64,000 bases of DNA from a bacterium (GTDB taxonomy: Bacteria > Patescibacteriota > Microgenomatia > UBA1400 > UBA12108), in assembly GCA_021788365.1 (NCBI GenBank), contig JAJYKS010000003.1:6283-70282 (forward strand), given 5' to 3'. Of the stretch, positions 1 to 44,777 are shown piece after piece (within the stretch, counting starts at the first letter, position 1; each line of letters begins with the position of its first letter). Made by a program: the position numbers and the translations under genes. A model generated the notes under the pieces. That model was not told where the DNA came from, ran no database searches, and worked only from the letters and a program-made list of their open reading frames with translations.

Positions 1-405
1 CCATCTCGACCATTGTCTCTAGCATGGAGGCCTCGGCCATGCCCCCACCAACAACGTCACCGTAGAGACAAATTCTCGCTCCGGAAAGTACCTTTCGTAC
101 CGCATCCCCCAAACGAATGGGTGCGGCGACGACAACCCGAACTCCTCCACTTATCAAGCTTTGCAGATAGGGATACCAAGGGGCGAGTGCGGGAGTGGCG
201 CAGGCAACTACGTAATCGATGTCTTTATTTTCTGCAAATTGGGTTAGGCGACTATCTCCTGGCTTGGAGGTGGCCGGATCAAGCACGAGTACCTCTAGGC
301 CATACCGAGCAAATCCGCCGCTAATGGGTGTCGTAAGCGGACCGGGTCCGGCGAGTACAAGTACCCCCTCCTCATGGGAAATGACTTCAAGAGATTGGGC
401 AGACA
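1..405 (-). CDS. Partial CDS (N-terminal part; continues beyond window start), Rossmann-like hypothetical protein
   Basis: Reverse-strand ATG at 403-405; the frame stays open to the window edge. Translation MSAQSLEVISHEEGVLVLAGPGPLTTPISGG... has a Gly-rich nucleotide-binding-like motif. No family recognised. Confidence 0.35.
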
Positions 406-816
406 TACCTATCAGTTTATCAGTTAACCGGCGAGCCGGCGAATCCTTTGGCGGGCTCACGACTATGCCAGTTGCCTATTTTATTGACGTGCCGGTACGC
501 AACACGTAGTTTTTTTGTCCTATATCACGTACTTCCCTATTTATGTTCTTTGTTTGTACGTTTTATTTCGTTTTGTTTGCTCGATATCCGCCTCTTTCTT
601 TTCCCCCCTTTTTTGTATGTACGTTTTTCCACGTTTTTTCTTGGTCTGTAAGTTAACCTTCGTTACAACGTTTTTTGTGAGAATTATATATGGCCGATAG
701 TAGTATTCACCGCGACGGTAGACCAGTTAGTCAGCTAGTCGATGGGTCGGTTTATCGGCAAGTCAGAAAATTTAGGGTTGGTGGGAATTGAGCACGGAGT
801 AGCAGGTCAGATTATA

Positions 817-1260
817 TTAAGTCCGTGAGTCTAGTGCCTCATTCACAAGGCCATCTGCTATTGAGTTGCCGGAGCGATACGTGTGAGAAATGTTCCACTT
901 TGGCAGCTTGGCGAGTAGCCCCCTCACCTCTTGAAATCTCGGGAACAAATCAGGGCTTTTTACCTTGTAGAGGCCTTTTACCTGGTTGACTATGAGGAGT
1001 GAGTCCATTTTGATCTCGAGCTCAGCCTGTGGCTCGTGTTCTAGGACCCACTTTACCCCGGCAATGAGGCCTGCATATTCTGCTTGATTGTTGGTTGTCA
1101 CCCCAAGATAATTACCGCATTTTTCCAGAACGATTGCCGCACCAGGGGTAATTTTCTCCTTTGTCGAAGCTCCGGCGGACAGGTCGTAAATAACATAGCC
1201 GTAGGCGGCTGGGCCTGGATTGCCCCGCGAACCACCATCGGTTTGAAGAAGTAAGCGCAT
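817..1260 (-). CDS. rnhA: Ribonuclease H (RNase HI-like)
   Basis: 147 aa. N-terminal LLLQTDGGSRGNPGPAAYGYVI and downstream acidic residues are typical of the RNase H fold. Confidence 0.7.
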   Translation of the reverse strand: MRLLLQTDGGSRGNPGPAAYGYVIYDLSAGASTKEKITPGAAIVLEKCGNYLGVTTNNQAEYAGLIAGVKWVLEHEPQAELEIKMDSLLIVNQVKGLYKVKSPDLFPRFQEVRGLLAKLPKWNISHTYRSGNSIADGLVNEALDSRT

Positions 1261-2484: not shown

Positions 2485-2508
2485 GAGACAAGTATATCGG
2501 TAGATCCG

Positions 2509-3918
2509 CTAGTCGGCGAGCCGGTTAGCCGGTTTGTCGGTTTTCCAGACGATGCGGAAATAGAGAAGCAATACGAATAATCCCTGGGGGGAGGTGAGGA
2601 AATAGTGGTCAAGAAGCAGAAGGGGGAGGAGGGGGAGCGCTTGCACAATTTCCGATTTCCAATTTCCAATTTTTAAAAGCTGGGCTACCGAGACTATTCC
2701 GGCAAAGCCAAACCAGGACAAGAAGAGGGTAAAAGCGTCATGGTCGGGCTGTAGGAGCCGGAGAGTAGGCGTGACGGCGGGGTAGGTAGAGATGCTGGCG
2801 CTTGCACCGGAGCCGAAGATCGGATATGAGCGAATAATTGAAAAGGAAGTATTTTGCAAACGCAGTCTATCAAAAACGGAAAGATCTAGAGATCGGGTGA
2901 GGGTACCAGAAGAGAGAAGAGAGAGTAAAGATACTAGGAGAACAAAGAAATACAGAATCCGAACGCGTAGAGACCGCAATAGACAACAGGGAATAACTAT
3001 TCCAAAGAGGGCGAAAGCGGCGGTGCGGGACTCTGTAAGAAAAACGCCGAGTGCGGCAAGGATAATCGCAAGGGTACCAACAAGGTCCAACCTCGTAGCC
3101 ATAAAGGCTACAAGATCGGACCTTCCGACGCTAGCGGTATTTGCCGACCTTGGTCGTTGCAGTCCGACCAACCTCACCGTTATCAAACTAGCTATTACAA
3201 GCCAACCAGCGAGCACGTTGGGGTGAGAGAACGTTCCATACGCGCGAAGCATCGTGTGACCAAAAAATGAGGCTGTGGCGACGGTAGGTGCCCCCACGGC
3301 AATGGCGCGTTCTCCAAACCAATAGAGAATTCCTTGGAGACTATGGCCGAGGGCCACTTGGATCGCACCAAGGGCTACCTGAAAGAGTGCGGAGGCGACG
3401 AGGATATAGGGAATGGTGGATAGAAAATTGGAGGACAGGGATAATATAAATACTGCGTACAGCAGGAGATGCAGCGACCAAGAAAGGGTGGCGAGTGGGT
3501 TTGCCGAGAAAAGGAGGTTGACAAGGAGAAGGGGTACAATAATTTCCAAGTTCCAATTTTCAATTTTCAGTGAATGTTCAAGTTTCAATTTTATAAAAAG
3601 ATATATGATAATCAGCAAGTCGAGCATGTAGAGCGTGGGGGAGAGGTAGTCGACGCGGATACCATATATCAGCGCCGAGTCCGGCCAAAAATGGCGGCCG
3701 AGTTCGGTAGCCGAGAAAAAGACTATGAGAAAACCCAAGCCTTGTTCAAGTGCGTGGCGCAATGAATACGCGGCGGTCGGGTCCTTCCCCTTGGGAGAAT
3801 GTCGTAAACTTGCCATTATCCTTGAACATAAGATGAATCTCGCGGCGTTCTGAGGCGGACAACGGAGGAAGAGCTCGGGGAGAGCCGGCGGCGGCAACTT
3901 CTCGCTGCACCCTGTCAA
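2509..3918 (-). CDS. Polytopic membrane protein (O-antigen ligase/polymerase-like); carries two in-frame heptamer-repeat insertions
   Basis: 469 aa and highly hydrophobic. The peptides ENWNLEI and GNWKSEI are encoded by AATTTCC/AATTTTC heptamer repeat copies at 2647-2675 and 3541-3594. Confidence 0.4.
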   Translation of the reverse strand: MTGCSEKLPPPALPELFLRCPPQNAARFILCSRIMASLRHSPKGKDPTAAYSLRHALEQGLGFLIVFFSATELGRHFWPDSALIYGIRVDYLSPTLYMLDLLIIIYLFIKLKLEHSLKIENWNLEIIVPLLLVNLLFSANPLATLSWSLHLLLYAVFILSLSSNFLSTIPYILVASALFQVALGAIQVALGHSLQGILYWFGERAIAVGAPTVATASFFGHTMLRAYGTFSHPNVLAGWLVIASLITVRLVGLQRPRSANTASVGRSDLVAFMATRLDLVGTLAIILAALGVFLTESRTAAFALFGIVIPCCLLRSLRVRILYFFVLLVSLLSLLSSGTLTRSLDLSVFDRLRLQNTSFSIIRSYPIFGSGASASISTYPAVTPTLRLLQPDHDAFTLFLSWFGFAGIVSVAQLLKIGNWKSEIVQALPLLPLLLLDHYFLTSPQGLFVLLLYFRIVWKTDKPANRLAD

Positions 3919-4952: not shown

Positions 4953-4984
4953 AATTTTCAATTTTCAGTTTACAATTTTCAAAT

Positions 4985-5239
4985 TCAGGGGACGGGGTCA
5001 TAGCCCCCGGCACTCCATGGGTGACATTTTAGCAGGCGGAGCACAGATAACCAAGCGCCCTTTATGAGTCCGTGCTTTGTAAGGGCAGTTTTGGCGTAGA
5101 GCGAACACGTGGGGGTATAGCGGCAACTTCCGTGTGCAAGACCAAGATTAGTTGCAACGGCTTTAAGATAGGGGGAGGTTTTCCGCCAAAGGTAATAGGG
5201 GGCGGAAATAATTTTTAATTTATAATTTTTAATTTTCAT
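4985..5239 (-). CDS. yidD: Membrane protein insertion efficiency factor YidD
   Basis: 84 aa with [11 protein letters not shown]...GGYDPVP, the hallmark YidD motifs. Confidence 0.8.
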
Positions 5240-5851: not shown

Positions 5852-7222
5852 ATGCGAATGGATATTATTTCTACATGGAAAGCAGTACAGGCAGACCTCG
5901 AGCTCTCCATTTCCCCCGTCCACTATTCCACGTGGATCCGCCCACTTTCGCTCACCTCCCTTGAGACAATGTCAGACGGCAGTCATCTTGCCTCCGTTCT
6001 CACCCCCTCCGCATACCATCAACAGATTGTTACTCAACGATACCTTGGACAGCTTGAGCGGAGTTTGGGGCGGGTTTTAGGCGGAAAGACAACGTTGTCT
6101 GTACTTGTTGGTCGGGATGCAACGGAGTCCGTTTCCAGTAAACACCTCAAGCAGCAGGCTGCCCCCTCGCTTTTTTCACCCAATACACTTGCGCCACCCA
6201 CTCCAACAGGCTCTCATAATCTAAACCCTAAATATACCTTTGACACCTATATCGTAGGTGCATCTAACAACTTTGCGCATGCTGCGGCAGTGGGTGTGGC
6301 AAAGACTCCTGGTACGCGCTATAACCCGCTTTTTATCTATGGTGGTGTGGGGCTTGGTAAAACCCACCTTATGCATGCCATCGGCCACGCGATTTTTTCT
6401 GACCACCCCGATTGGGACATTATGTATATTTCGGCCGAAACTTTTGGGAGTGATCTTATCGCTAGCTTACAGAACAAGCGAACGGCACAGTTTAAGAAAA
6501 AATATCGCTCACCAAATGTTCTTCTTGTGGATGACGTGCAGTTTATCGCTGGGAAAGAATATATCCAAGAAGAATTTTTCCACACCTTTAATGAACTCTA
6601 TTTGTCCGGGCGACAAATTGTTATGACTAGCGATCGCCCGCCGCAAGAAATTTCGAGGATTGAAGAGCGTCTATCGTCACGATTCATGGGCGGGCTTACT
6701 GTCGACATCCAGCTTCCTGATTTTGAGACACGAGTGGCCATACTCACCCAGAAATGTCAATCTCTGGGCGTACCGGTCCCCGCGGAGGCCCTTTCCCTCA
6801 TCGCCGAACGGTCGCCAACCAATATCCGAGAGCTTGAGGGAGTTCTCCAGACGATCCTTTCCAAGGCTGCTCCAGGCACCGATCTGACTAGCAATGTCGT
6901 TCGCGAGTACTTTGGCACTGAACACGAGCGGCGGAGCCAACGGGTGCGTCCCAATGCCGTCATCGCCAAGACTGCACAATATTTTGACTTTAAACCATCT
7001 GAGCTCACCGGTAGCAGTAGAAAAGCGCCCTTAGTTGCAGCTCGGCATGTCGCCATGTATCTTCTCTACGTTGATTTTGACTTACCCTATGAACAAATAG
7101 GCGATCTTTTTGGGGGGCGCGACCATACAACCGTTATGCATGCCGTCGAGAAGGTGGCGGGGGAGCTCAAAACCCAAGCTGAGATTGCCAAGATAATTGC
7201 CGATATTAAACATGGGCTGTAA
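5852..7222 (+). CDS. dnaA: Chromosomal replication initiator DnaA
   Basis: 456 aa with the AAA+ Walker A GGVGLGKTHL, sensor motifs, and a C-terminal DNA-binding domain (VAMYLLYVDFDLPYEQIGDLFGGRDHTTVMHA). Confidence 0.95.
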   Translation: MRMDIISTWKAVQADLELSISPVHYSTWIRPLSLTSLETMSDGSHLASVLTPSAYHQQIVTQRYLGQLERSLGRVLGGKTTLSVLVGRDATESVSSKHLKQQAAPSLFSPNTLAPPTPTGSHNLNPKYTFDTYIVGASNNFAHAAAVGVAKTPGTRYNPLFIYGGVGLGKTHLMHAIGHAIFSDHPDWDIMYISAETFGSDLIASLQNKRTAQFKKKYRSPNVLLVDDVQFIAGKEYIQEEFFHTFNELYLSGRQIVMTSDRPPQEISRIEERLSSRFMGGLTVDIQLPDFETRVAILTQKCQSLGVPVPAEALSLIAERSPTNIRELEGVLQTILSKAAPGTDLTSNVVREYFGTEHERRSQRVRPNAVIAKTAQYFDFKPSELTGSSRKAPLVAARHVAMYLLYVDFDLPYEQIGDLFGGRDHTTVMHAVEKVAGELKTQAEIAKIIADIKHGL

Positions 7223-7460
7223 TGTGGATAACTATGGGGAAAAGTCTGTGGATAGGTGAGTGGAAAGTGGTAGGAAAACTAACCCATGTTATGGGTAAAA
7301 GTGGAGAAGTTTGGGGTTATACACCACCCGCTAAGTTATCCCCAGTTTTATCCACCGCGTTTTCCCCCACTCCTACTCGACATGTTTTCCGGAAATCCAC
7401 CGCGCCTACTAGTACTACTACCTTAATTATCTATAATAGGGGGATCATAAAGGAGCCATT
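7223..7460. promoter_or_regulatory. dnaA-dnaN intergenic DnaA-box cluster (candidate oriC)
   Basis: The region holds TGTGGATAA (7224-7232), TGTGGATAG, TTATCCCCA and TTATCCACC. A canonical SD AAAGGAG precedes dnaN. Confidence 0.55.
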
Positions 7461-8558
7461 ATGAATATTGAGATTTTACAGGAACAGCTTGCTAGCGGGC
7501 TCACCTCCGTGCTTCGTGCCGTGTCGTCTCGAGCTCAGCTCCCCGTGCTCTCCCATGTACTTCTTGAAGCTACGGCCGATGGGATTACTTTATCGGCAAC
7601 AGATCTAGAACTGGGTATTCGTATAAAGATCCCCGCTAAAGTTAGCGAGCCCGGAACCATTACCGTGCCCGCCAAGATGCTTTTTGAGTTTCTTTCATCG
7701 CTATCCCCGGGGAAGGTGTCGCTGGCTTTTGCGGGGGAGACGCTTACCGTAGCCTCTGGTTCATATTCGGCAAGTTTCCAGACCCTTCCCGTTGAGGAGT
7801 TCCCCACCCTTCCCGTTTTTACCAAAGAAATTATGGTTGCGACTATTAGGCTCTCGGACTTGACGAGGTCAGCAGATCGAGTAACCTTTGCAAGTGCCAA
7901 GGACACTTTGCGGCCGGCACTTACTGGCGTTCTCCTTGAGTCGGGAAAGGAATTGACTTGTGTTGCAACAGATGGGTTTCGCCTGGCCGTACAAAAAATT
8001 CCGGTTACTTCTGGTAGCGGATTCGCAACATCTCTACTCGTTCCTGCTCGAGCAATCGGAGAAGTGGCCCGGACGGCATTCCCCGAAACCATAGATGTTG
8101 GTTATATTGCCGAGTCGCATCAGCTGCTTTTTTCCTCCCCTGAAACGATGGTAGTGACACAGCTTTTAGATGGCAACTTTCCTGATTATGGGAAAATTCT
8201 TCCCAAGGAGTTTACTTCGGAGCTTTTACTTTCCCGAGCTGAGTTGCTGCAAGCTGTTAAGGCTGCCCATATTTTTGCACGCGACAACTCCAATATGATG
8301 CGGTGGAAGGTGGAAAAAAAAGAACTAACCATCTCTGCGCGCAGTCCCGAGCGAGGGGAGTGTGTGGTTCGGGTGCCAATTACCACTACCGGCGAAGATG
8401 GGGAAATAGTATTTAACACAAAATATATTCTGGATTATTTGGGCGTTGCCGAGGCTGACGAGCTATGGTTCGGGATGAAGGGCTCGCTTGCTCCCGGAAT
8501 GTTCCGCGATGGAAAAAGTGACACCGGGATGTATGTTGTTATGCCAATAAATGCGTAG
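7461..8558 (+). CDS. dnaN: DNA polymerase III beta sliding clamp
   Basis: 365 aa with a three-domain clamp pattern (LLEATADGITLSATDLELGI...). It directly follows dnaA. Confidence 0.9.
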   Translation: MNIEILQEQLASGLTSVLRAVSSRAQLPVLSHVLLEATADGITLSATDLELGIRIKIPAKVSEPGTITVPAKMLFEFLSSLSPGKVSLAFAGETLTVASGSYSASFQTLPVEEFPTLPVFTKEIMVATIRLSDLTRSADRVTFASAKDTLRPALTGVLLESGKELTCVATDGFRLAVQKIPVTSGSGFATSLLVPARAIGEVARTAFPETIDVGYIAESHQLLFSSPETMVVTQLLDGNFPDYGKILPKEFTSELLLSRAELLQAVKAAHIFARDNSNMMRWKVEKKELTISARSPERGECVVRVPITTTGEDGEIVFNTKYILDYLGVAEADELWFGMKGSLAPGMFRDGKSDTGMYVVMPINA

Positions 8559-8604
8559 AGGTATTTGGTGCGTCAGTATATCGGCTTGTCGGCAAATCGG
8601 TTTT

Positions 8605-10542
8605 TCAGTTTGTCGGCTGAATCGGAGTGGAAACGGGGTTTGCTTGCGGGCCGGCATTCTGATTCGCTGGCACACTAGCCCGCTGATTTGCTGGTGTGCT
8701 ACCCGGCTGATTGTCCGGAATTTTGGCTGCCATGGCCACGGCTAGTTTTTGCTGCTTTGCCAAAAGTTCTCGAGGGTCGGTGGTGATTAGGCCATGCTCT
8801 TCTGGGGAGGCGACAACTTTTATGGCGACGTGGTTTTGGCCGGCGAAAAAAAGCGCTTCACCAACCTCGGCGGTGAGTAGCAAGTGTCGCTCTCCTTGGG
8901 AGAGATAGAAGACTTTAGCAAGGTTTTCTATCGCGGAAGTCGATTGTTTCATTAAAACCTGGATACTGCTGTTGCTGACGATAGCCTTCCCGTGGTCTGA
9001 TTTAAGAAAATCATCCACATCTTGTGTAATGGTGGTGAGCCCTAGAAAGTATTTGCGGGCTCGCTTGGCAATACTATAGAGAAAGTTGGCGGAGTCTTCG
9101 GATTTCATGAGGTACCAGGCCTCATCAACTACCAGTAAACGCCTCTTCATGTCGCGCTTTACCTTGGTCCAAATATAGTCAAGAATGATAAAGATGGCGG
9201 TTGGGCGCAGCTCGTCTTGAAGATTCTTAATACCAAACACTGTGAGTCTGTTTCCGAAGTTGACGTTTGATTTCTGTGAAAAAATGCCTTGAAAACTTCC
9301 CTTTACGTATTTTTCTAGCCTGTCTGCAAGGCCGCGGGCAACAGACTCTTCCATGCCAACAAGCGCCTTATATAAATCCTCCATGAGCGGTGGTTCTAGG
9401 TTGTGAGTTGCTGGGTCGCGCGTAATTCCCTTCATCTGATAGGTCATAACCAGCGCGCGGTCGAGGAGAGCTTCCTCGGTTGGGTTCATGTCGCCCATCA
9501 TGATTTTTAACAGTGAGTGGAGCGAGATGATTTTCATAGCGAGCTCGTTTTCATCCGGCTCAGCCATTTGTGGCAGCTCAAACGGATTTATACGATTTGG
9601 ACTGCTAAAGCTAAAATCAACATAGGTGCCACCCAGGGTTGTTGCAAGTTTGCGATACTCGTCTTCAGGGTCAATTGCAATAACCTCCGTGTCGAACAAC
9701 ATAGAGCGCAAAACCTCGAGTTTTACCATGTAGCTTTTGCCAGAACCGGATTTGGCAAACACAACCATGTTGGCGTTCTCTAGCGTAAAGCGATCAAAAA
9801 TAACGAGCGAGTCGTTGTGCTCATTGATGCCATACATAATCCCTTCATTTGCGGTCAGCTCACTTGAGGTGAAGGGAAAGGTGGTGGCAAGGCTCGTTGT
9901 GTCCATGTTGCGGTTAATTTTTAATTTGTCGAGGCCGGTGGGGAGCGTCGTCTTGAAGCCATCTTCTATTTGTAGCGTGGCAGTTTTGGCAACAATGAGG
10001 AGCGCGCCCAAAGCACTTTTTACTTGATTGGTCACCCGGTCGAGCATATCCTTTTTGTCGTCCCGGATCGTAACATAGAGTCCGAATTGAAAGAAGCGTT
10101 CGGCGCCCTTGGCGAGTTGTTCTTGTAGGGCGCGAGCATCTTCGAGCTTTACCTGAGTGTCAATGTTGACGATTCGGCCACGCTGGATGTCGCCCGCTAT
10201 TTCAGCCTCCATCTCGGCGATCTTGCGGCGCAAGTCTTCGATAACCCCTTTACCCTCTACTGGGTAAATAAACATAGAGATAGTAAGGCTGTGATTAAAG
10301 TTTATGAGTGGCGAAAGCCAGTTGGCGTTTACAAAGCGTGGGTAGCCGGCGACAAAGAGGGTGCGGTAGTAGGTATCGTTGATTTTAATATCGGAAAAAT
10401 CGACCTCAATGGCTTCTGGGGCGATAATGTCTTTGACGTTGGACGTTCCCTGTGAGAGAACTTGTACCGGCTGAGAGACGGCAGGGCCACTAGTATCGTC
10501 TTTCTTTTTCGGCATGAATGGAAAGGGCAGGTTAAGAGCCAT
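8605..10542 (-). CDS. VirB4/TrbE/CagE-like type IV secretion ATPase
   Basis: 645 aa with Walker A VVFAKSGSGKSYMVKLE, Walker B LLVVDEAW, and the N-terminal DUF87-like region typical of VirB4. The low-complexity C-terminal tail (PANQ repeats) is encoded by the octamer-periodic element. Confidence 0.8.
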   Translation of the reverse strand: MALNLPFPFMPKKKDDTSGPAVSQPVQVLSQGTSNVKDIIAPEAIEVDFSDIKINDTYYRTLFVAGYPRFVNANWLSPLINFNHSLTISMFIYPVEGKGVIEDLRRKIAEMEAEIAGDIQRGRIVNIDTQVKLEDARALQEQLAKGAERFFQFGLYVTIRDDKKDMLDRVTNQVKSALGALLIVAKTATLQIEDGFKTTLPTGLDKLKINRNMDTTSLATTFPFTSSELTANEGIMYGINEHNDSLVIFDRFTLENANMVVFAKSGSGKSYMVKLEVLRSMLFDTEVIAIDPEDEYRKLATTLGGTYVDFSFSSPNRINPFELPQMAEPDENELAMKIISLHSLLKIMMGDMNPTEEALLDRALVMTYQMKGITRDPATHNLEPPLMEDLYKALVGMEESVARGLADRLEKYVKGSFQGIFSQKSNVNFGNRLTVFGIKNLQDELRPTAIFIILDYIWTKVKRDMKRRLLVVDEAWYLMKSEDSANFLYSIAKRARKYFLGLTTITQDVDDFLKSDHGKAIVSNSSIQVLMKQSTSAIENLAKVFYLSQGERHLLLTAEVGEALFFAGQNHVAIKVVASPEEHGLITTDPRELLAKQQKLAVAMAAKIPDNQPGSTPANQRASVPANQNAGPQANPVSTPIQPTN

Positions 10543-10544
10543 AT

Positions 10545-10672
10545 CCTATCAGTATACCAGCTAGTCGGCGAGTCGGCGGGCCGGCATGTCGGCTTGTCAG
10601 CGAGGCCGGAAAACCGATGCACCGATTTAACTGATTGGCTGACTAGCTGATTTGCTGATTTGCCGACTATCT
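10545..10672. repeat. Octamer-periodic (NNGTCGGC)n / (GCTGATTT)n intergenic element, one of at least five copies
   Basis: TAGTCGGC GAGTCGGC GGGCCGGC ATGTCGGC TTGTCAGC ... GCTGATTT GCTGATTT GCCGACTA. It is flanked on the gene side by CAGTATAcc (TATACT -10 on the coding strand) 8 nt before the VirB4 ATG. Confidence 0.5.
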
Positions 10673-11305
10673 GGCCACGTTGGGGGCGACGACGGGCTGC
10701 TCGTAGTCGGCGGCGGTGCCAAATTTTTGCCCCTTTACCGTTGCGTTATAGAAGCTGTGAAAGAGGGACATAAGATTTTGGGTGTTGAGCTGGTTAGCTG
10801 TTAATCCAATGCGCGTTAGTTGCTTAATAATGTGATCGCGCTTTGGCTCGAGGTCGGCCTTCGCTTTGTCGATAAGACTTTGGTCTATTACCACCTTTCC
10901 TGAAAGGGTGATCATCTGATAGGAAATAACCACATAAAATTTTTTATCCAAAACATTCTGTTCGGTGATTGTTGTTTCCACAAACTGGCGGTACTTGTGC
11001 ATGCGGTCTTGCAAAACGGGATCGTGAAGCTTTTTCTCTTGTGTGCTTAGTAACTCGAGGTAGGAGCTAATGTCCTTTTTGTCGGATTTTACGACTATTT
11101 GGATGGGAAAACTAAGCGAATTTAGTAGGCCGGCATACGCGTAGATGGTGGCGTCTTGTTCTTCCTCAGAAAGCAGGCCAAAATTAATGGCGGAAGTAGA
11201 TATTAACATGCTGCAGGTGCCATTTTTTAATATAACGAGGTCATCTTGGATTGTTTCTACGTCGAGATGATCCTGAGTGGTTGCGACAATGACATTGTTG
11301 TCCAT
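10667..11305 (-). CDS. Hypothetical protein of the T4SS-like cluster
   Basis: 212 aa, soluble, no recognised motif. It is preceded by a TATACT leaderless-type promoter and an octamer array. Confidence 0.45.
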   Translation of the reverse strand: MDNNVIVATTQDHLDVETIQDDLVILKNGTCSMLISTSAINFGLLSEEEQDATIYAYAGLLNSLSFPIQIVVKSDKKDISSYLELLSTQEKKLHDPVLQDRMHKYRQFVETTITEQNVLDKKFYVVISYQMITLSGKVVIDQSLIDKAKADLEPKRDHIIKQLTRIGLTANQLNTQNLMSLFHSFYNATVKGQKFGTAADYEQPVVAPNVAR

Positions 11306-11437
11306 ACGGACTCAGTATATCAGTAGGTCGGCAAGTCAGCGAATCGGTTGGTCGGTATGTCGGCTTGCCAGTAATCGCCGAAACCTGGCTTACAGGTTTA
11401 GCTGGTTAGCTGACCCGCCGGTTTGCTGGTGTGCCGA

Positions 11438-12475
11438 TTATTGTGCTCGGAGGAGGATGGGGGGGATGATGTCTCCTTTGGTTGTCAGCGATTGTGGGGC
11501 GAACTTGAGACCATCCTTTTCCACTTCAATGGCATAGGAGCCGTTTCCGAGAGGTGTGGTGGTAAAAAACTGTCCAAGGCCGTTGGTTTTCATGGCGCGG
11601 GCGGGGATCCCGTCTCCCATCACTACCTGAACAATGGCGTTTTCTACTAGGTGCCCCCCTTTGTCGACGACTATTCCCGTTATCACATTGGGGATTTGGG
11701 GCGCGGCGGGCAGCTTAATTGTTGTCAGGGGGGTAGACGCAACTTTTGGCGCGGTAGTGGGGCTTGTGGGGCGGGAGAAAACCACATCAACCGTTGGCGG
11801 AGGGCTTTGTGGGGTTTTTGTGGGTGCTGCTGCAACGGTGGGTGTTGGCGTCACGGGGATCGATATCGTACGTAACGGTGGCGCGGGCGGGGTCGCCGCC
11901 GGAGACGGAGCGTTGTTATCGAATACTATACTTTTTGCTTTTAGTTTGCGGATTGTTACTGCGGGCTTGGCGCTACTGGTTTCGACGATGGTAACTGGTG
12001 GAACGGCGGGGGAGATGTGTACTTTCTGAAATAGCGCGTCGACCTCGTGGACCTGCTTTGCTTCTTCTGTCGAGAGGTCGCTTGTTACCGTTTTTCGTAC
12101 GGGAAGCGTTGGTGCTTTGAGTGTTTTTACCGCCGTAGGAGTATCTACAAAAATGTGGGCGGCGAAGGTAAACATTTCAGGAATGGTATTTGTCTTTTTC
12201 CAAACGAAACGGGTGGGGCCATAGATGGCTTTAACAAAATTAAGTGCCCAGATGTCCAGTGGACGATCTTCGAGTGGAAAGAATGCAAAGGCTATTCCAC
12301 CAAAAAGCGAGATGAGTGCGAGCGGCCACTTGAATATAAAAATCAGATTGCTCGCATAGAAAAGGTAGGCGACGAGCATCCCGGCAGCTAGTTCCAAAAA
12401 TTGTTTGAGCGTCATGTCTCCCACAAGGCGGAACTGATATTGTGTAACGTTCTGAGGAATGGGGTGTTGCTGCAT
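11438..12475 (-). CDS. PrgI/VirB3-like membrane protein with a Pro/Thr-rich linker and a C-terminal beta-sandwich (carboxypeptidase-regulatory-like) domain
   Basis: The N-terminus FRLVGDMTLKQFLELAAGMLVAYLFY plus two TM helices resembles PrgI-family VirB3 analogues. A long PT-rich spacer precedes the GIVVDKGGHLVENAIVQV...GSYAIEVEKDGL fold. The likely start is the ATG at 12473-12475 (MQQHPIP; the ORF-track start at 12499 is a TTG), with a TATACT box 6 nt upstream. Confidence 0.5.
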   Translation of the reverse strand: MQQHPIPQNVTQYQFRLVGDMTLKQFLELAAGMLVAYLFYASNLIFIFKWPLALISLFGGIAFAFFPLEDRPLDIWALNFVKAIYGPTRFVWKKTNTIPEMFTFAAHIFVDTPTAVKTLKAPTLPVRKTVTSDLSTEEAKQVHEVDALFQKVHISPAVPPVTIVETSSAKPAVTIRKLKAKSIVFDNNAPSPAATPPAPPLRTISIPVTPTPTVAAAPTKTPQSPPPTVDVVFSRPTSPTTAPKVASTPLTTIKLPAAPQIPNVITGIVVDKGGHLVENAIVQVVMGDGIPARAMKTNGLGQFFTTTPLGNGSYAIEVEKDGLKFAPQSLTTKGDIIPPILLRAQ

Positions 12476-24754: not shown

Positions 24755-25105
24755 TTAGTAAGCTTTCGGGGGGTTGATGTTGCCATTCAATACTGAAATC
24801 CCGAAGAAGTATTGAATGATAAGCATTACAGCCCATGCGGAGGCAACGACGGCAAGACCAACCAAGGCGGCCGTTATGCGATCGCGTGCTTCTTGTGTCT
24901 TCCCCTTGTCACCACCAGAGGTGATCCACTGAATGCCACCCCAAATAAGGTAGGCAAAAACGAGCAGGGCGGCTATCAAGAGTGCGCCTTGGACGGCACC
25001 CTGAATGAGCGTGCCGATGTTGGTAATCTGGACGTTGTCAGGCTTGTTGACGGATAGGTCGGGGGCTGCTGGTGCTTGAGCTAGAGCTACTGGGATAAGA
25101 TTCAT
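24755..25105 (-). CDS. VirB2/TrbC-like T4SS pilin paralogue 2
   Basis: 116 aa with the GGIQWITSGGDKGKTQEARDRITAALVGLAVVASAW motif. It has its own TTGACA-N17-TAAACT promoter and a canonical SD AAAGGAGG. Confidence 0.7.
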   Translation of the reverse strand: MNLIPVALAQAPAAPDLSVNKPDNVQITNIGTLIQGAVQGALLIAALLVFAYLIWGGIQWITSGGDKGKTQEARDRITAALVGLAVVASAWAVMLIIQYFFGISVLNGNINPPKAY

Positions 25106-25162
25106 ATATTTCCTCCTTTATGTGTGTAGTTTATTTTTTTATACGCCTGTTGTCAATTTATT

Positions 25163-25468
25163 TTATTTTGTGATTCCGATGCCGAAGAAATAGTCGATGA
25201 GACGGAAGATGGCCCAGGATGCCGCTACGATGGCTAGACCCAAGATGGCGTTGGTAATGCGATTTCTTGCCTCTTCTAGCTTTCCCTTTTCGCCGCCCGA
25301 GGTTACCCATTGAACACCGCCGTAGATCATATAGATAAAGGTGGCGAGTCCTGCAACCATGATGACGGCGGAGATGGATTTTGAGACAAATGTGCCGAGC
25401 GAACTGTTAACGGCGACGCGAGACTGGACTTCACTGCCAATGTTTATGTCAAAGCTGCTTGCTGCCAT
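25163..25468 (-). CDS. VirB2/TrbC-like T4SS pilin paralogue 3
   Basis: 101 aa with GGVQWVTSGGEKGKLEEARNRITNAILGLAIVAASW. An SD AAGGA lies 8 nt upstream. Confidence 0.7.
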   Translation of the reverse strand: MAASSFDINIGSEVQSRVAVNSSLGTFVSKSISAVIMVAGLATFIYMIYGGVQWVTSGGEKGKLEEARNRITNAILGLAIVAASWAIFRLIDYFFGIGITK

Positions 25469-25535
25469 ATATTATTCCTTCATTCCCTCGACTGTCGCTC
25501 GGGATTTCGGGCTATTTTTATATTTATTAATGTCC

Positions 25536-25913
25536 TCAACCCGCTGTTGGCCACTTAACGTTTAATAGGTCGATCCCGAGTGCTGCTTGGAGGAATTTGA
25601 TAATGACATATGAGGCAACGAGAATGGCGAGACCAATCAGGCCCTGTGTGATGTGGTTCTTTGCGTCTTCTAATTTACTCTTTTCGCCGCCAGAGAGGAT
25701 CCAGTTTACCGCCCCCCAGAGGAAGTACATCATGAATGCGAGACCACCGACAATAATGATTGTTTGCCATAGGGTACCAACGGTTACGGCAAATTGTTTC
25801 CCCTGATCTCCGCCACCCCCACCCGGAACGGCGACGTTGGTTATTGTGGCATGAGCGACTGTAGGAGATAGGAGGTAGGAGATGGGAGATAGGAAGGCAA
25901 TGAGTTTTTTCAT
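25536..25913 (-). CDS. VirB2/TrbC-like T4SS pilin paralogue 4
   Basis: 125 aa with a signal peptide and GAVNWILSGGEKSKLEDAKNHITQGLIGLAILVASY. A TAAtATG junction couples it to the upstream gene. Confidence 0.7.
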   Translation of the reverse strand: MKKLIAFLSPISYLLSPTVAHATITNVAVPGGGGGDQGKQFAVTVGTLWQTIIIVGGLAFMMYFLWGAVNWILSGGEKSKLEDAKNHITQGLIGLAILVASYVIIKFLQAALGIDLLNVKWPTAG

Positions 25914-25914
25914 A

Positions 25915-26271
25915 TTATTTAAAGGTCATACTTTGGATAAGTGTGCCTGGATTCAGAATGTCGACACCTAGGGCTTTCCCAACGATCCATACAATGGAGT
26001 AAGAAACGGTAATGATGATCATTCCAATGGCGCCATTGGTCATCATGTTTTTGGCGTTTTCGATCTTATCTTTTTTGCCACCGGCTGTAATCCAGTTGAG
26101 TCCACCCATGAGAAACCAGAGAGTAAAGGCAAGCCCGCCTACGATGGTCAGGATGGCAAGAGAGTTGCTGATGATTTTTTCGAGTGGGTTAGTGTAGGCG
26201 GCGACACCAGAGCCACCACCGGGCTGGTATCCGCCGGGAGTTGTGATTTGGCTAAAGTTTATATTTGCCAT
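25915..26271 (-). CDS. VirB2/TrbC-like T4SS pilin paralogue 5
   Basis: 118 aa with GGLNWITAGGKKDKIENAKNMMTNGAIGMIIITVSY. Confidence 0.7.
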   Translation of the reverse strand: MANINFSQITTPGGYQPGGGSGVAAYTNPLEKIISNSLAILTIVGGLAFTLWFLMGGLNWITAGGKKDKIENAKNMMTNGAIGMIIITVSYSIVWIVGKALGVDILNPGTLIQSMTFK

Positions 26272-26272
26272 G

Positions 26273-26614
26273 TTAGTAGCTCCCCGGACCCGTGATACTG
26301 GGCTGCAGAATGGCGGTTGCGGAACCGAAAAGTAGGAAGCTGACGACGCCGGTTATGGCGGCTGCAGCGACCATGACTATGAGGCCAATCAGCGACATAT
26401 TGATGGATGAAATGGCTTGTTCTATCTTCTTTTGGTCGCCATTGCTGGTTATGTAGGTGAAACCGGCGTACATGAGATTGAAAAAGGCAAAAAGGCCAGC
26501 AGCGGCGAAGATAACCTTAACTACGTTGGAGATGAAAAGGGGAAGGCCAGTGTTGACCGAGCCATAACTCGTGGACGGTAAAGGGTTGTTGATGCCACCA
26601 AATACACTTGCCAT
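26273..26614 (-). CDS. VirB2/TrbC-like T4SS pilin paralogue 6
   Basis: 113 aa with AGFTYITSNGDQKKIEQAISSINMSLIGLIVMVAAA. Confidence 0.65.
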   Translation of the reverse strand: MASVFGGINNPLPSTSYGSVNTGLPLFISNVVKVIFAAAGLFAFFNLMYAGFTYITSNGDQKKIEQAISSINMSLIGLIVMVAAAAITGVVSFLLFGSATAILQPSITGPGSY

Positions 26615-26622
26615 AGGCGCTA

Positions 26623-26979
26623 TTATAAACCACTGTTGAGGATCTGCACTCCTGTAACAACTTGAATAATCTGGATGATCCAGTATGATCCGAAAAGTAC
26701 CAATAAACCAACTAACGCAGATGTGATGATTTTACTTCCTTCTTTGGTTTTTTCTGAGTTCCCAGCGTTTGCGACAATGGTAAAGCCGCCGAACACGATC
26801 ATAAAAAAGATAACAAGGCCAGCAGCAACGTAGACGTTGGGGAGGATGGCGTTTATCAGCTTGCTTGCATTGGGGTAGGTAGAGGTGGCAGTGGAATTGC
26901 CCTGGAACAGAAGCTTGTCGCCGAGATTGAAACCAGTAGCGGCCATAGTGAGGAAATTATAGCAGGTTGAGCTGGCCAA
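26623..26979 (-). CDS. VirB2/TrbC-like T4SS pilin paralogue 7 (first gene of the operon)
   Basis: 118 aa with GGFTIVANAGNSEKTKEGSKIITSALVGLLVLFGSY. A TGCTATAAT box lies 9 nt before the ATG. Confidence 0.65.
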   Translation of the reverse strand: MASSTCYNFLTMAATGFNLGDKLLFQGNSTATSTYPNASKLINAILPNVYVAAGLVIFFMIVFGGFTIVANAGNSEKTKEGSKIITSALVGLLVLFGSYWIIQIIQVVTGVQILNSGL

Positions 26980-27057: not shown

Positions 27058-27155
27058 ATCCATGTTCGCATTTAGAGTAGAATTCGCTCAAAGTTTCTTA
27101 ACGTATGCACAAAAATCGTTCTCGGCCAGTTTATGGGGGGGGTAGAATAGCGGGT

Positions 27156-27689
27156 ATGGAGATAATTGTTGAGGAAGTGTTGCAAGGTAAGCGGGGGGCG
27201 GCAACGCGCTTTTATCTCCGATATGCGCCCGGAGTTCGCCGTTATCTTTTGGCAAAATTGCCAGATGAACATATAGCGGAAAATTTGTTGCAAGATGTTT
27301 TTTTGTCGGCGTTTGATTCACTTGCCTTGTACCGCGGCGATTCGAGTGTTGCAACATGGCTTCTTTCGATTGCGCGACACGAGGTGGCCGATTACTGGCG
27401 GAAGTATTATGTGCGCAAAGCAGTCGAGAAGACGAGCCCACTCTTTGAGACGATTGTGTCGGAGATGCTTTCACCGGAATTTGCCTCATATAAGAGCAGA
27501 TTACGCATGCGGTTTATGCGGGCATATCACACTGTGGGCGTGCAATATCAGGATGTGTTGTCCTACCGCTATGAGCTCGGGATGAGTGTAAAAGAGATTT
27601 CTATAAAAATGAACCTGTCATTTAAGGCGACGGAGTCGCTCTTGTACCGAGCACGGCAGGCATTCGCGGCGGCGTATGAACAAGGATGA
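27156..27689 (+). CDS. ECF-type sigma-70 family RNA polymerase sigma factor
   Basis: The region 2 motif LLQDVFLSAFDSLALYRGDSSVATWLLSIARHEVADYWRK and region 4 motif QYQDVLSYRYELGMSVKEISIKMNLSFKATESLLYRARQAF are both present. A TAGAAT box lies 7 nt before the ATG (MEIIVEEV). Confidence 0.75.
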   Translation: MEIIVEEVLQGKRGAATRFYLRYAPGVRRYLLAKLPDEHIAENLLQDVFLSAFDSLALYRGDSSVATWLLSIARHEVADYWRKYYVRKAVEKTSPLFETIVSEMLSPEFASYKSRLRMRFMRAYHTVGVQYQDVLSYRYELGMSVKEISIKMNLSFKATESLLYRARQAFAAAYEQG

Positions 27690-27912
27690 ACAGGCGTTTC
27701 TTCGAGCTCTTGAGCAGAAAGCACACGAGCAGCGGAAATTGTCGAAAACCGAGATTCTTCCCCGATGGGCTGTGGGGGTAGGTGAGTGGTTGGTGGTAAA
27801 CCCCTGGCGGGTGTTGGTGCCTGCATCTGGAATTTTATATATCGCATTTCGGCTATTGTTGGGGGAGCAGTTTCGGACGCTGATTTTAGGGCTATTTGGA
27901 GGTTTTCGATGA
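27676..27912 (+). CDS. Small single-TM protein overlapping the sigma gene end (candidate anti-sigma factor)
   Basis: 78 aa with a charged N-terminus and a C-terminal TM helix. It overlaps the sigma gene by 14 nt and is coupled to the next gene through ATGA. Confidence 0.4.
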   Translation: MNKDEQAFLRALEQKAHEQRKLSKTEILPRWAVGVGEWLVVNPWRVLVPASGILYIAFRLLLGEQFRTLILGLFGGFR

Positions 27913-28223
27913 GCAGCAACCGTGCGGTGGGAGCATGGATCGCCTATGTGTGGATGACTACGTGGGCGGGGCTTGCCATTCACCCTTACCAGTCGATTAA
28001 GCGAATGGTGCTTGGGGATAGAGTACTCCTACCCGTTACGTTGTCGCCTACGTTATTCTTGCTCGCGTTGTTTGTGGTGGGGCGAGTGGGATCGCATTTT
28101 TTTAATCTTTATGGAATAACACGTGAATTGGTGGCATTTGTCTTGGGGAGTACGCTCATTGGGCTTCTCTTGTGGCAGGGGTTGCTTTTGGCTTTGATCT
28201 ACCGATTCTTCCGCGTGAAATGA
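27909..28223 (+). CDS. Three-TM membrane protein, third gene of the sigma operon
   Basis: 104 aa starting MSSNRAVGAWIAYVWMTTWAGLAI. Confidence 0.4.
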   Translation: MSSNRAVGAWIAYVWMTTWAGLAIHPYQSIKRMVLGDRVLLPVTLSPTLFLLALFVVGRVGSHFFNLYGITRELVAFVLGSTLIGLLLWQGLLLALIYRFFRVK

Positions 28224-32998: not shown

Positions 32999-33337
32999 TT
33001 ACGAGACGATGCTGACTTTGAAGATAACCTGGAGAATCTGGGCGATCCAGTAGGCGGCGAAGATAACAATAAAGCCGATCACGGCGTTGGTGATCATGGA
33101 CTTTCCCTTTTCAGCGGCGTCCTTTTCAGCAGCTCCGGTTAGCATGGTAAAACCACCAAAGATAAGCATGCCAAAAAGGATGATACCGGCTAATGTAAGG
33201 AGATAGGGTAAGAAAACGGAAATGATGCTACCAATATTTCCCGAGGCAAGGCTACCTTTAAGACCCAGCGTACTATTGAGGGTTCCGTATTGAGAAGTGC
33301 CGTAATCTATAGCGAAGGCGCGTGGTATTAATTGCAT
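32999..33337 (-). CDS. VirB2/TrbC-like T4SS pilin paralogue 8 (second locus)
   Basis: GGFTMLTGAAEKDAAEKGKSMITNAVIGFIVIFAAYW. The likely start is MQLIPRAF, coupled to the upstream gene through TAAtATG. Confidence 0.65.
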   Translation of the reverse strand: MQLIPRAFAIDYGTSQYGTLNSTLGLKGSLASGNIGSIISVFLPYLLTLAGIILFGMLIFGGFTMLTGAAEKDAAEKGKSMITNAVIGFIVIFAAYWIAQILQVIFKVSIVS

Positions 33338-33338
33338 A

Positions 33339-33941
33339 TTAAAACCCTGGTAATTGAATGATACCACCCGCGACGATTCGAAGGAGTACAACTGCAAAAA
33401 TTATAAAAATAATTCCCATAACTGCGCCACCAAATAGTTCTTTTCCCTTCTTTACCGCCTCTGGGTTTCCGCCTCCCGTCATTATTTGGACTGTCGCCGA
33501 TAACATAACAACCAACGCGATTGCTCCCGCTATGCCTGAAGCGAATGTGAGAAGGTCTGGTGTAAATGTCCCGGGCTTGTACGGAATACATCCTATGGCA
33601 GTGTCAATCTTGCCATCGCCACACGTTCCTTGTGGATCTGTTTGGACGTGAGGTGTTCCAGTAAGCGCACCGGACGGTTGTGTTTGAGCCGTTTGCATGA
33701 GCTGATTGCAGTCTGCGGCGCCTGCGCAACAGTATCGACTTACGCTACCCGTTCCCGAACGAGAGATAGAGCAAAAAAAGGACTGAGAAGAGCTAGGGTC
33801 GCACGAGCTAGCAGCAATATTGGAGCAGGCCGCGTAAGCCTTGGGTGCGACGATCGTGCAGGTAATCGCGAGCGCAACGAAGATGCTTGGGATATATGAT
33901 AGGATGGATCTATGTTTCCGCGCCCGGTAAAGTTGCTGCAT
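33339..33941 (-). CDS. Secreted Cys-rich protein with a C-terminal pilin domain (short paralogue of the 984-aa protein)
   Basis: 200 aa with a signal peptide, a Cys-rich segment, and a C-terminus (GIAGAIALVVMLSATVQIMTGGGNPEAVKKGKELFGGAVMGIIFIIFAVVLLRIVAGGIIQLPGF) nearly identical in pattern to the 21479-24286 C-terminus. Confidence 0.55.
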   Translation of the reverse strand: MQQLYRARKHRSILSYIPSIFVALAITCTIVAPKAYAACSNIAASSCDPSSSQSFFCSISRSGTGSVSRYCCAGAADCNQLMQTAQTQPSGALTGTPHVQTDPQGTCGDGKIDTAIGCIPYKPGTFTPDLLTFASGIAGAIALVVMLSATVQIMTGGGNPEAVKKGKELFGGAVMGIIFIIFAVVLLRIVAGGIIQLPGF

Positions 33942-39101: not shown

Positions 39102-39127
39102 AATCCCGCAAAAGCGGGATTTTGCTG
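39102..39127. terminator. Bidirectional rho-independent terminator shared by smpB and the convergent candidate tmRNA
   Basis: AAAATCCCGC-AAAA-GCGGGATTTT is a perfect 10-bp-stem hairpin with T-runs on both strands. Confidence 0.7.
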
Positions 39128-39529
39128 TGGAGACGGAGGGCAGTGAGCCCTCGTCCGCGTGCTGCTACTAACATCATCTACATACGTAGTTCATTTTATT
39201 TTTAACCTCATGCTGTCCCGGGAATGAACGAACCAAAATAGCAAGAGGGTTGTCGATTGATTTGGGCCAGAGTGACAAGACCTGGCTTACGGCCTGTGTC
39301 TGTTTCCACCCAACTACCGCGCCACAAGCGACTTGGTAGTGAATGCCGTTAGGCAAATGCCGGTACGAAACCAGCGTTGTCTGCGGGAGTAAAGAGACCT
39401 ACAAAGAAGTCTTTTACTGCAGTCAAAGGATTTTTGACAGTTATTTTTTGGCTCTTTTTTACGACTTCCTTAGCCAAAGTCGGTATGCAGATGTTAATGA
39501 GCGAGTACACGTCAATACAAGACGTCCCC
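39128..39529 (-). ncRNA. ssrA: Candidate tmRNA (SsrA), about 402 nt, CCA not encoded
   Basis: Minus-strand 5' GGGGACG pairs with 3' CGUCUCC, including G3:U70 (the Ala identity element), followed by discriminator A. The 3' tRNA-like domain GGAC-GAGGG-CUCACUG-CCCUC-CGUCUCCA parallels E. coli GGAC-GCGGG-UUCAACU-CCCGC-CAGCUCCA. An internal frame GCA GAC AAC GCT GGT TTC GTA CCG GCA TTT GCC TAA encodes the tag ADNAGFVPAFA* (39349-39384). The upstream promoter is TGGTACCAT. Confidence 0.55.
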
Positions 39530-44694: not shown

Positions 44695-44777
44695 CGGAGG
44701 AGGCGGGACTCGAACCCACGAGTGCTTTCGCACGGAGGTTTAGTAAACCTCTGCCGTAGCCGCTGGGCCACTCCTCC
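44695..44777 (-). tRNA. Class II tRNA (long variable arm); anticodon loop UUACUAA, identity unresolved
   Basis: Acceptor GGAGGAG/CTCCTCC, T-arm GTGGGTTCGAGTCCCGC, 3-bp D-stem, 16-nt variable arm. By hand the anticodon reads ACU, which is atypical. Confidence 0.55.

Follow-up and report, generated by a model that had tools for sequence, protein, structure and literature searches.

Several bacterial regulators assemble on short tandem repeats. MetJ binds tandem 8-bp met-boxes and omega (pSM19035) binds 7-bp heptads; both kinds of site overlap promoters, and each unit takes one ribbon-helix-helix dimer. Met-boxes are palindromic in themselves (AGACGTCT) and come in runs of two to five, and omega sites mix direct and inverted units upstream of several promoters. 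We analyzed arrays of degenerate octamers in a 64,000-nucleotide (nt) stretch of DNA (the window) from a bacterium of the Microgenomatia (Patescibacteriota; contig JAJYKS010000003.1 of GCA_021788365.1). Compared with MetJ and omega sites, these arrays are longer, more degenerate and, in three of six cases, composed of one direct block and one inverted block, and the omega units differ further in measuring 7 bp.

ParG binds degenerate ACTC boxes with invariable 4-bp spacers, both direct and inverted, coating its operator and its centromere, and ribbon-helix-helix centromeres are arrays of 7- to 11-bp repeats (PMC3413123). The arrays share with the ParG operator OF and centromere parH of plasmid TP228 a degenerate 4-bp box, an invariant 8-bp spacing, the use of both orientations, and a position next to or over a promoter; cooperative coating by dimers, which is possible at the ParG sites, is predicted for the arrays by analogy. 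They differ in having YCRG in place of ACTC as the box, spacers that are not rich in A and T, and no neighboring gene of the ParG or ParF type; they are also chromosomal, with 4 to 8 units per arm, and lie upstream of and over the -10 elements of several unrelated genes. In Geobacter metallireducens, the class 1 predicted global regulator binding sites are paired on opposite strands at a variable distance, each with four tandem GTTGCTYN repeats; they are intergenic, multicopy (48 dispersed copies) and associated with insertion sequence (IS) insertions, and their function is not known (PMC2700814). Both their motif and their phylum differ from those of the arrays, and no tie to a -10 element is described for them.

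Correia elements of Neisseria and promoter-carrying miniature inverted-repeat transposable elements (MITEs) are palindromic intergenic sequences of 100 to 150 bp whose ends supply a -10 box to the neighboring gene; like the arrays, they vary in presence among strains and can run into coding ends. Correia elements have 26-bp terminal inverted repeats, a TA target duplication and hundreds of near-identical copies; unlike them, the arrays show no duplication, have arms of phased octamers, and are few, clustered and diverged. We tentatively read the arrays, with a probability of roughly 45%, as operator-like sites for an oligomerising DNA-binding protein, similar in geometry to those of ParG and MetJ and carried on swappable promoter cassettes.

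Anatomy of the arrays

A plus-strand scan for GTCGGC at a period of 8 returned exactly five loci, with scores of 22 to 28 of 30 (maximum in 20 shuffles, 21), and these are the five copies listed in the original prediction, made from the sequence alone. A degenerate five-unit pattern matched six times in the window and never in 100 shuffles, and a scan for runs of YCRG gave seven arms, as opposed to none in 30 shuffles. The sixth array, a short one, begins directly after a CAT at 404-406. The remaining 52 kb of the window and 9 kb past its left end contained no further array. All six are grouped within 11 kb and lie no more than about 7 kb from the dnaA-dnaN spacer. The copies are about 65 to 70% alike when aligned by eye. 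Their coordinates in the window are as follows.

Array Z, 405-445, plus strand: four to five octamer units (ATCAGT TT ATCAGT TA ACCGGC GA GCCGGC GA ATC); listed by Tandem Repeats Finder (TRF) at 410-425
Box of array Z, 414-419, minus strand: TAAACT, 7 nt before the minus-strand ATG at 404-406; the copy reads CAGTTTATC
Array A, 700-770, plus strand: five to six octamer units, proximal arm only
Array B, 2488-2548, plus strand: -10 box at 2491-2496 and six to seven octamer units, no distal arm
Element C, proximal arm, 8572-8625, plus strand: box at 8575-8580 and six to seven units, 14 nt past dnaN, which stops at 8558
Element C, apex and distal inverted arm, 8626-8720, plus strand: GCTGATTT/GCTGGTGT units; on the minus strand, the PANQ-rich C-terminal tail of VirB4
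Element D, proximal arm, 10545-10609, plus strand: seven to eight units, box at 10551-10556
Element D, distal inverted arm, 10610-10678, plus strand: seven units (ACCGAT ... GCTGATTT GCTGATTT GCCGACTA)
Element E, proximal arm, 11309-11372, plus strand: eight units, box at 11314-11319
Element E, apex CGCCGAAACCTGGC and distal inverted arm, 11373-11440, plus strand: five to six units

All copies share one orientation, and several run into the 3' ends of upstream genes, both of which had been noticed before. Array A is located downstream of the RNase H-like gene and upstream of the T-rich leader of the DUF4012 gene. From 2512 on, the units of array B are the last codons of a Wzy-like protein (stop, 2509-2511). 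The VirB4 stop (8605-8607, minus strand) sits within unit TTTTCAGT of element C, whose distal arm, apex and part of the proximal arm encode the VirB4 tail (...TPANQRASVPANQNAGPQANP...). The distal arm of D takes in the stop (10667-10669) and last three codons of the gene for a TraC-like protein of 212 amino acids (aa), and that of E runs up to and includes the PrgI-like stop codon (11438-11440).

The array unit comprises 8 nt, two variable bases followed by a six-base core (NNRTCRGY), and a period of 8 is kept throughout. Units are degenerate (73 to 84% matches in TRF) in a position-specific manner, and their number varies between strains and species. Over 56 in-phase units, the C at core position 3 (C3) is kept in 51 and the G at position 5 (G5) in 48. 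Transitions occur at 4 of 103 C3 and G5 sites and at 83 of 202 sites at positions 1, 2, 4 and 6 (Fisher test, P = 1.4e-13), a difference that is somewhat inflated because the register of the units is partly defined through YCRG. Since C3 and G5 are nearly invariant and the other four positions switch freely by transition, the unit is best described as a 4-bp box, YCRG (most often TCGG or TCAG), plus a 4-bp spacer. This spacer has the form Y-N-N-R; its central pair is A, T or G and almost never C, and its outer bases are frequently G or C. The near-invariance of C3 and G5 points to sequence-specific recognition: a change of C3 to T would keep G·U pairing and suit the excess of T, yet it is almost absent, so that base-specific recognition fits better than pairing.

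Three copies had been described as switching to a second type of octamer. This switch is real in C, D and E (GCTGATTT/GCTGGTNN), but its palindromic nature had been overlooked: the second half (GCTGATTT, GCTGGTNN, GCTGGTGT and GCCGACTA) is the array unit inverted, complementary to the first half when G·U wobble pairs are allowed. Because the distal half is an inverted complementary array, each of these elements forms a palindrome of 120 to 150 nt, and one degenerate pattern matches both arms on opposite strands. Between the -10 box and the upstream-gene stop lie about 15 octamers, a direct block followed by an inverted block. Arrays A, B and Z have no second arm. The distal-arm unit GCTGGTGT (8690-8697 and 11425-11432) matches the Escherichia coli Chi sequence GCTGGTGG at 7 of 8 positions, on the G-rich strand, which is probably a coincidence.

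Promoter boxes and cassette turnover

B, C, D and E begin with RTCAGT-AT-ATCRGY, and the complement of AGT-AT-A is TATACT, so that a -10 hexamer is built from two array units and lies in phase with the array. The (C)AGTATAYC start reported for every copy applies to these four, whereas A has a deviating box-like AGTAGTATT at 700-708 and Z reads CAGTTTATC. The hexamer had been placed 6 to 8 nt before a minus-strand ATG, and this is where it lies in three copies: in B, a minus-strand TATACT is 6 nt from the flippase ATG (2484); in D, TGGTATACT, read on the minus strand as an extended -10, is 8 nt from the VirB4 ATG (10542); and in E, TGATATACT is 8 nt from the ATG that starts the 212-aa gene (11305). 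All arrays that border a downstream gene (Z, B, D and E) adjoin a -10 box, in one orientation and with the box in array phase; B, C, D, E and Z share a constant orientation and phase with respect to it, and the TGn of an extended -10 is present in D, E and Z. In element C, as first described, the box has no gene behind it and faces the dnaN stop, making C a possible orphan or antisense promoter.

The association with promoters holds up beyond the arrays, in a way that the original prediction had overlooked, since in relatives the -10 box occurs independently of arrays. A TATACT(A)-type box lies 5 to 10 nt before the ATG at orthologous genes of relatives, and in L004/L005 and L134 it is kept although the intergenic gap is 19 to 22 nt and contains no array. 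In the window, TANNNT ends 5 to 9 nt upstream of the ATG in 20 of 44 ATG-start genes, as opposed to 6.4% of random positions, and is often accompanied by TGn. Shine-Dalgarno (SD) sequences were seen at few genes only when the upstream regions of the window were inspected by eye, canonical -35/-10 pairs occurred at the level of chance in a window scan, and intrinsic terminators showed no excess over chance in the window. The conservation of the box in relatives, the enrichment of TANNNT and the scarcity of SD sequences together suggest that this organism uses leaderless-type promoters widely, and the -10 box appears to be a native promoter element that is not peculiar to arrays. A promoter for an extracytoplasmic function (ECF) sigma factor with CGAC as its -10 was considered and rejected, one fortuitous AAC-N16-CGAC, in E, being the only instance.

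The gene for the DUF4012 protein starts at 460 in public assemblies, and an in-frame ATG lies at 404-406, behind TAAACT-N7 and array Z; this suggests that the true start is likely the ATG at 404-406, 18 codons downstream of the called start. The interval between array A and the DUF4012 start (515-700) is T-rich (A-rich on the gene strand) and contains repeated ACGTTTTT(T) motifs. Similar repeats (ACGTTTTTT) occupy the corresponding place in L002, L004, L006 and L128, and the stretch may be a conserved leader or regulatory region.

In horizontal regulatory switching, as described for E. coli, the promoter regions of strains are replaced by non-homologous alleles. The cassette at D behaves similarly. 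In strain L141 (97.6% identity), arrays A and B are identical to those of the window and the distal arm of C is 36 nt shorter, but at D an unrelated 169-nt hairpin stands in place of all 134 nt of the cassette, between conserved flanks. Divergence starts abruptly 2 nt past the VirB4 ATG, which places the -10 box inside the divergent part, and ends as abruptly three codons before the upstream-gene stop. The borders (CATAT/.../GTTGGGG) contain no target-site duplication, and the alternative allele has been replaced, not interrupted. The proposal of a mobile promoter cassette is thus upheld insofar as a non-homologous allele within the same species includes the -10 box and the last three upstream codons, and it is contradicted by the lack of target-site duplication, by the 65 to 70% likeness of the copies (by eye) and by replacement instead of insertion. 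Horizontal regulatory switching would account for the exchange of cassettes, though not for the function of the arrays.

L128 (about 70 to 95% nucleotide identity over the locus) has the same alternative allele as L141 at D. It keeps A and B at about 70 to 80% nucleotide identity with changes at the level of units, A being two units shorter and the B ortholog equal in length and about 78% identical (by eye). Despite the same synteny, arrays are absent at D and E in L128 and in L004. More distant relatives have at these gaps no insert, other long hairpins (-47 to -71 kcal/mol) or other 7- to 8-nt periodic repeats. Arrays recur elsewhere in the clade: a YCRG (YCRGA) array adjoins the box of a PrgI-like gene of the type IV secretion system (T4SS) in L133, an array without a box follows dnaN in L006 (a 75%-identity relative), and a YCRG array follows a type IV pilin cluster in L078 (a Blackburnbacteria genome), with nothing related to replication among the 10 flanking proteins scanned. 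These comparisons indicate that arrays recur in promoter-proximal DNA of the clade but turn over rapidly there.

Other repeats share these locations. A second family of intergenic hairpins, 150 to 220 nt long and unrelated to the arrays, has motifs such as CTGCGC(A/T)AAATTTTTCTT(A/T)GTGAAA; it fills the same T4SS gaps in relatives (L128, 6328-6477 and 7115-7285; L006, 9856-10001 and 10639-10862; L133, 10675-10866) and, at the D position of L141, constitutes the alternative allele to array D within the species. Other 7- to 8-nt periodic repeats lie upstream of -10 boxes at L145 8820-8870 and L133 9910-10001. The contigs L131, L133 and L134 end 50 to 190 nt past the TraC-like gene, inside the intergenic element, which suggests that such elements are repeated in those genomes and break their assemblies. 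Within the window, 7-nt tandem repeats of four to five copies (GATTTAC, CAATTTC, AATTTTC, TAATTTT, TAGGAGA and CAATTTT) are present at or near gene boundaries (1262-1288, 2646-2672, 3541-3569, 4953-4982, 5209-5236, 25862-25894 and 58857-58891).

Beyond close relatives, GTDB genomes were scanned with a highly degenerate pattern, which biases what it finds; the matches listed were mostly generic 8-nt or 24-nt repeats from high-GC phyla, with one match (L078) from the candidate phyla radiation (CPR). Octamer arrays with the same core, which may or may not be related to those of the window, occur in other phyla: an Anaerolineales metagenome-assembled genome (MAG) has (GAGTCRGC)n directly upstream of start codons (L055 1513-1549 and L062 5587-5654), and an Anaerolineae MAG has (GGATCRGC)n upstream of an SD-ATG (L008 3634-3670). 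A metagenome scan with a specific two-arm pattern gave five matches, four of which arose by chance in high-GC coding DNA, and recovered no close family members. The fifth, at L139 8087-8193 on a metagenome contig of 71% GC, is a hairpin of RTCAGC octamers that is analogous, and only possibly related, to the arrays.

Proposed operators and competing explanations

Read as operators, the arrays would be cis-regulatory DNA in which degenerate YCRG boxes, spaced 8 bp from center to center, start on the -10 hexamer and run 35 to 60 bp upstream. Small ribbon-helix-helix-like dimers would dock one per box and polymerise cooperatively along the DNA as a left-handed spiral, advancing about 274 degrees per step, or about four boxes per three helical turns. 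Such a protein coat would control the access of RNA polymerase, most simply by repression, since the -10 element is overlapped by the last two boxes. Type IV secretion genes (VirB4-like and TraC-like) and envelope genes (flippase and DUF4012) of the window would be co-regulated in this way. In C, D and E, the inverted second array would lengthen the site up to the stop of the upstream gene and yield the potential to form a hairpin. Each array with its own -10 box would constitute an intergenic cassette in which units are gained and lost, and whole cassettes would be exchanged between strains.

The anatomy of the arrays, their positional constraint, their promoter context and their polymorphism between strains are seen directly in the sequences. 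Protein binding, repression and co-regulation we infer from four features that an operator-like array fits best: the fixed 8-bp phase, the positional constraint, the constant orientation and phase with respect to the -10 box, and a proximal arm that is sufficient by itself, standing alone in A and B and persisting in L128. The strict period and non-random occurrence of the arrays, the recurrence of the same design at the box of another T4SS gene in L133, and the precedents of ParG and of the Geobacter sites add to this support. The suggestion of a protein-binding array is to that extent consistent with the constraint on C3 and G5 and with the phase, and no binding protein was found for it among the roughly 30 window proteins scanned with Pfam.

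That negative result is one of several points that weigh against operators. The Pfam scans detected neither a ribbon-helix-helix domain nor another small regulator next to the arrays; the small open reading frames (ORFs) in the gaps, on which the Pfam scan was not run, looked spurious by eye and included no convincing regulator. The AT-rich 4-bp spacers of the ParG type are missing, and the constraint statistic carries the inflation noted above. Orthologous promoters keep the -10 box without an array (L004/L005 and L134) or with unrelated hairpins, indicating that arrays are dispensable. No gene lies downstream of the arrays of C, L006 and L078, which occupy convergent gaps, and about 290 nt separate A from the ATG. 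Finally, sampling was limited, the survey having covered the 64-kb window and 9 kb beyond its left end, or about 74 kb of the genome.

A more specific version of the operator reading, which we regard as unlikely in its full extent, is a system particular to CPR bacteria or Microgenomates. In it, a small protein would polymerise on phased YCRG boxes over leaderless -10 elements and co-switch T4SS and pilus genes with envelope polysaccharide genes, and the portable operator-plus-promoter cassette, being swappable, would rewire host-interaction genes within a species.

The explanation that best survives alongside operators, doubtful but deserving of serious weight, is that the arrays are non-adaptive or selfish repeats. 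They would be either octamers produced by slippage and duplicated in inverted form by template switching in the free intergenic space of a compact genome, or foldback or MITE-like elements that carry a -10 (a Correia-like "mobile promoter"), harmless in both cases and quick to turn over. Much of the strain variation is what such repeats would produce, including the differences in unit number (the 36-nt indel in C and the two units fewer in A of L128), the presence or absence of a whole cassette at D within the species, and the unrelated palindromes or 7- to 8-nt periodic repeats that occupy the same gaps in relatives. The many 7-nt tandem repeats at gene boundaries of the window, the relatives' contigs that end at these gaps, and the intrusion of arrays into the coding tails of VirB4 and Wzy are also expected from repeats. 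However, neutral decay should strike all six core positions, and C3 and G5 are nearly invariant; moreover, B, C, D, E and Z all keep one orientation and one phase with respect to the -10 box, and A and B are conserved in L128. Against mobile elements in particular, the borders of D show replacement of the ancestral sequence without target-site duplication, the copies are dissimilar and clustered within 11 kb instead of dispersed, and the window proteins scanned with Pfam included no transposase nearby.

Candidate classes of repeat and mobile element were compared with the arrays individually. For a MITE or Correia-like element, target-site duplication with simple insertion was not observed, nor were many dispersed similar copies in the 74 kb examined. 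As to terminal inverted repeats, the picture is mixed: the arms form inverted arrays, the end bearing the -10 box lacks a complementary partner at the far end of D and E, and A, B and Z have a single arm. Seen as a variable-number tandem repeat (VNTR) or contingency locus, the arrays have the varying unit number of that class, but their units are degenerate in a position-specific way instead of near-identical. Integron attC sites and single-stranded DNA (ssDNA) hairpins of the IS200/IS605 or repetitive extragenic palindromic (REP)-like kind were discarded because the flanks are syntenic core T4SS genes in all relatives, the arrays keep their orientation on both sides of the putative oriC, and neither a transposase nor an integrase is present.

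A role for the palindromes of C, D and E as RNA or ssDNA hairpins is improbable. Such hairpins might be antisense plus-strand RNAs, 3' stabilisers or terminators (of dnaN at C, or of the minus-strand genes), or processing sites by which genes of the T4SS operon are uncoupled. As plus-strand RNA, the three elements fold at -63, -66 and -65 kcal/mol (z of -3.7 to -7.2) with 10 to 14 G·U pairs, more strongly than the minus strands (-37, -51 and -43 kcal/mol). Shuffling the order of octamers in the 3' arm or in both arms, however, leaves stability unchanged (a fraction of 0.09 to 0.21 of the permuted sequences folded at least as stably), so that complementarity belongs to the repeated unit and not to specific pairings, and the RNAalifold covariation term (-0.98 over three sequences) is negligible. 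The strand asymmetry matches the background G+T skew. At degenerate positions of the plus strand, G occupies 62% of R sites and T occupies 66% of Y sites, and nearby 4-fold degenerate codon sites have a G/(G+A) of 0.67 and a T/(T+C) of 0.58 (binomial P of 0.33 and 0.09 in comparison with array sites); as the preference for G and T equals the background skew, the excess of G·U pairs reflects that skew. Permutation, covariation and skew speak against a structured plus-strand RNA, which was rejected as the principal explanation, and the hairpin needs no separate explanation, which favors operators.

Other properties of the elements also argue against an RNA. A, B and Z are single-armed, C3-to-T changes are avoided although a G·U pair would survive them, and in D and E the better-folding strand is antisense to the flanking genes. 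Rfam gave no match at the gathering threshold and, at E <= 5, only a chance mir-341 (E = 1.6). An intrinsic terminator was rejected because no U-tract lies behind the hairpin: no T-run follows it on either strand, and the terminator scan lists none at the elements. In favor of an RNA role, canonical terminators show no excess in the genome; the role is kept alive mainly because the alternative alleles of relatives are also long hairpins, so that the hairpin as such may be what is kept. Most likely, the hairpin potential is a consequence of inverted arrays.

Very improbable are origin-proximal chromosome-organising sites, whether centromere-like or for loading a nucleoid protein, similar to the arrays bound by ParR, ParG or omega and grouped around oriC for that reason: the six arrays do cluster around the dnaA-dnaN spacer with its DnaA-box repeats and are missing from the remaining 52 kb, L006 also has an array after dnaN, and known ribbon-helix-helix centromeres are likewise arrays of 7- to 11-bp repeats, but orientation follows gene direction on either side of oriC and not replication direction, the arrays are tied to -10 boxes, close relatives of the same synteny lack them (L004, and L128 at D and E), the L078 array sits beside a type IV pilin cluster with no replication link in its scanned flanks, and the window proteins scanned include no par genes.

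Genomic setting and significance

Contig DAHXIW010000001.1 of GCA_027372535.1 (L142) matches the window at 100% identity, and Microgenomates or Woesebacteria are the names attached to homologues of the 212-aa protein. Genes around the arrays, identified with Pfam unless only coordinates are given, are as follows.

Left part, minus strand, in this order: DUF4012, RNase H-like gene, Wzx flippase, Wzy-like gene, Jag, YidC and rnpA
817-1260, minus strand: RNase H-like gene (coordinates)
5852-7222, plus strand: dnaA
7461-8558, plus strand: dnaN, with its stop at 8558
8605-10542, minus strand: VirB4-like ATPase of the type IV secretion cluster
10667-11305, minus strand: TraC-like 212-aa protein
11438-12475, minus strand: PrgI-like protein, followed by large proteins that also belong to the minus-strand T4SS cluster

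Farther to the right of the T4SS cluster, Pfam identifies many T4SS pilins and an ECF sigma factor. Eight small T4SS-pilin paralogues form two clusters (24755-26979 and 32999-33941), and the ECF sigma factor and a possible anti-sigma partner (27105-28223) adjoin the T4SS region. A tmRNA (39125-39529) lies beside smpB, and a tRNA is located at 44695-44777. The dnaA-dnaN spacer (7222-7464) contains inverted DnaA-box-like repeats (GTGGATAA, TGTGGATA / TTATCCCCAG, TTATCCAC; 7224-7367) and is probably oriC; GC skew keeps its sign there. An 80-aa ORF in the spacer, a 76-aa gene in public assemblies, is probably spurious.

To our knowledge, almost nothing has been experimentally established about the control of transcription in CPR/Patescibacteria, few of which are cultured. 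Their type IV secretion and pilus systems and their envelope are thought to mediate an episymbiotic lifestyle. In our tentative reading, the arrays would represent a variant of phased short-repeat operator arrays in a lineage whose regulation is essentially uncharted. Were they instead products of slippage only, they would serve as a useful caution, since arrays add low-complexity tails to ORFs (VirB4 and Wzy) and the contigs of relatives end at them. If the operator reading is correct, the cis-element common to these promoters would supply a motif for finding the regulator and for predicting its regulon from metagenomes. Leaderless-type promoters, together with cassettes that differ between strains at 97.6% identity, bear on gene calling and on the regulatory evolution of reduced genomes.

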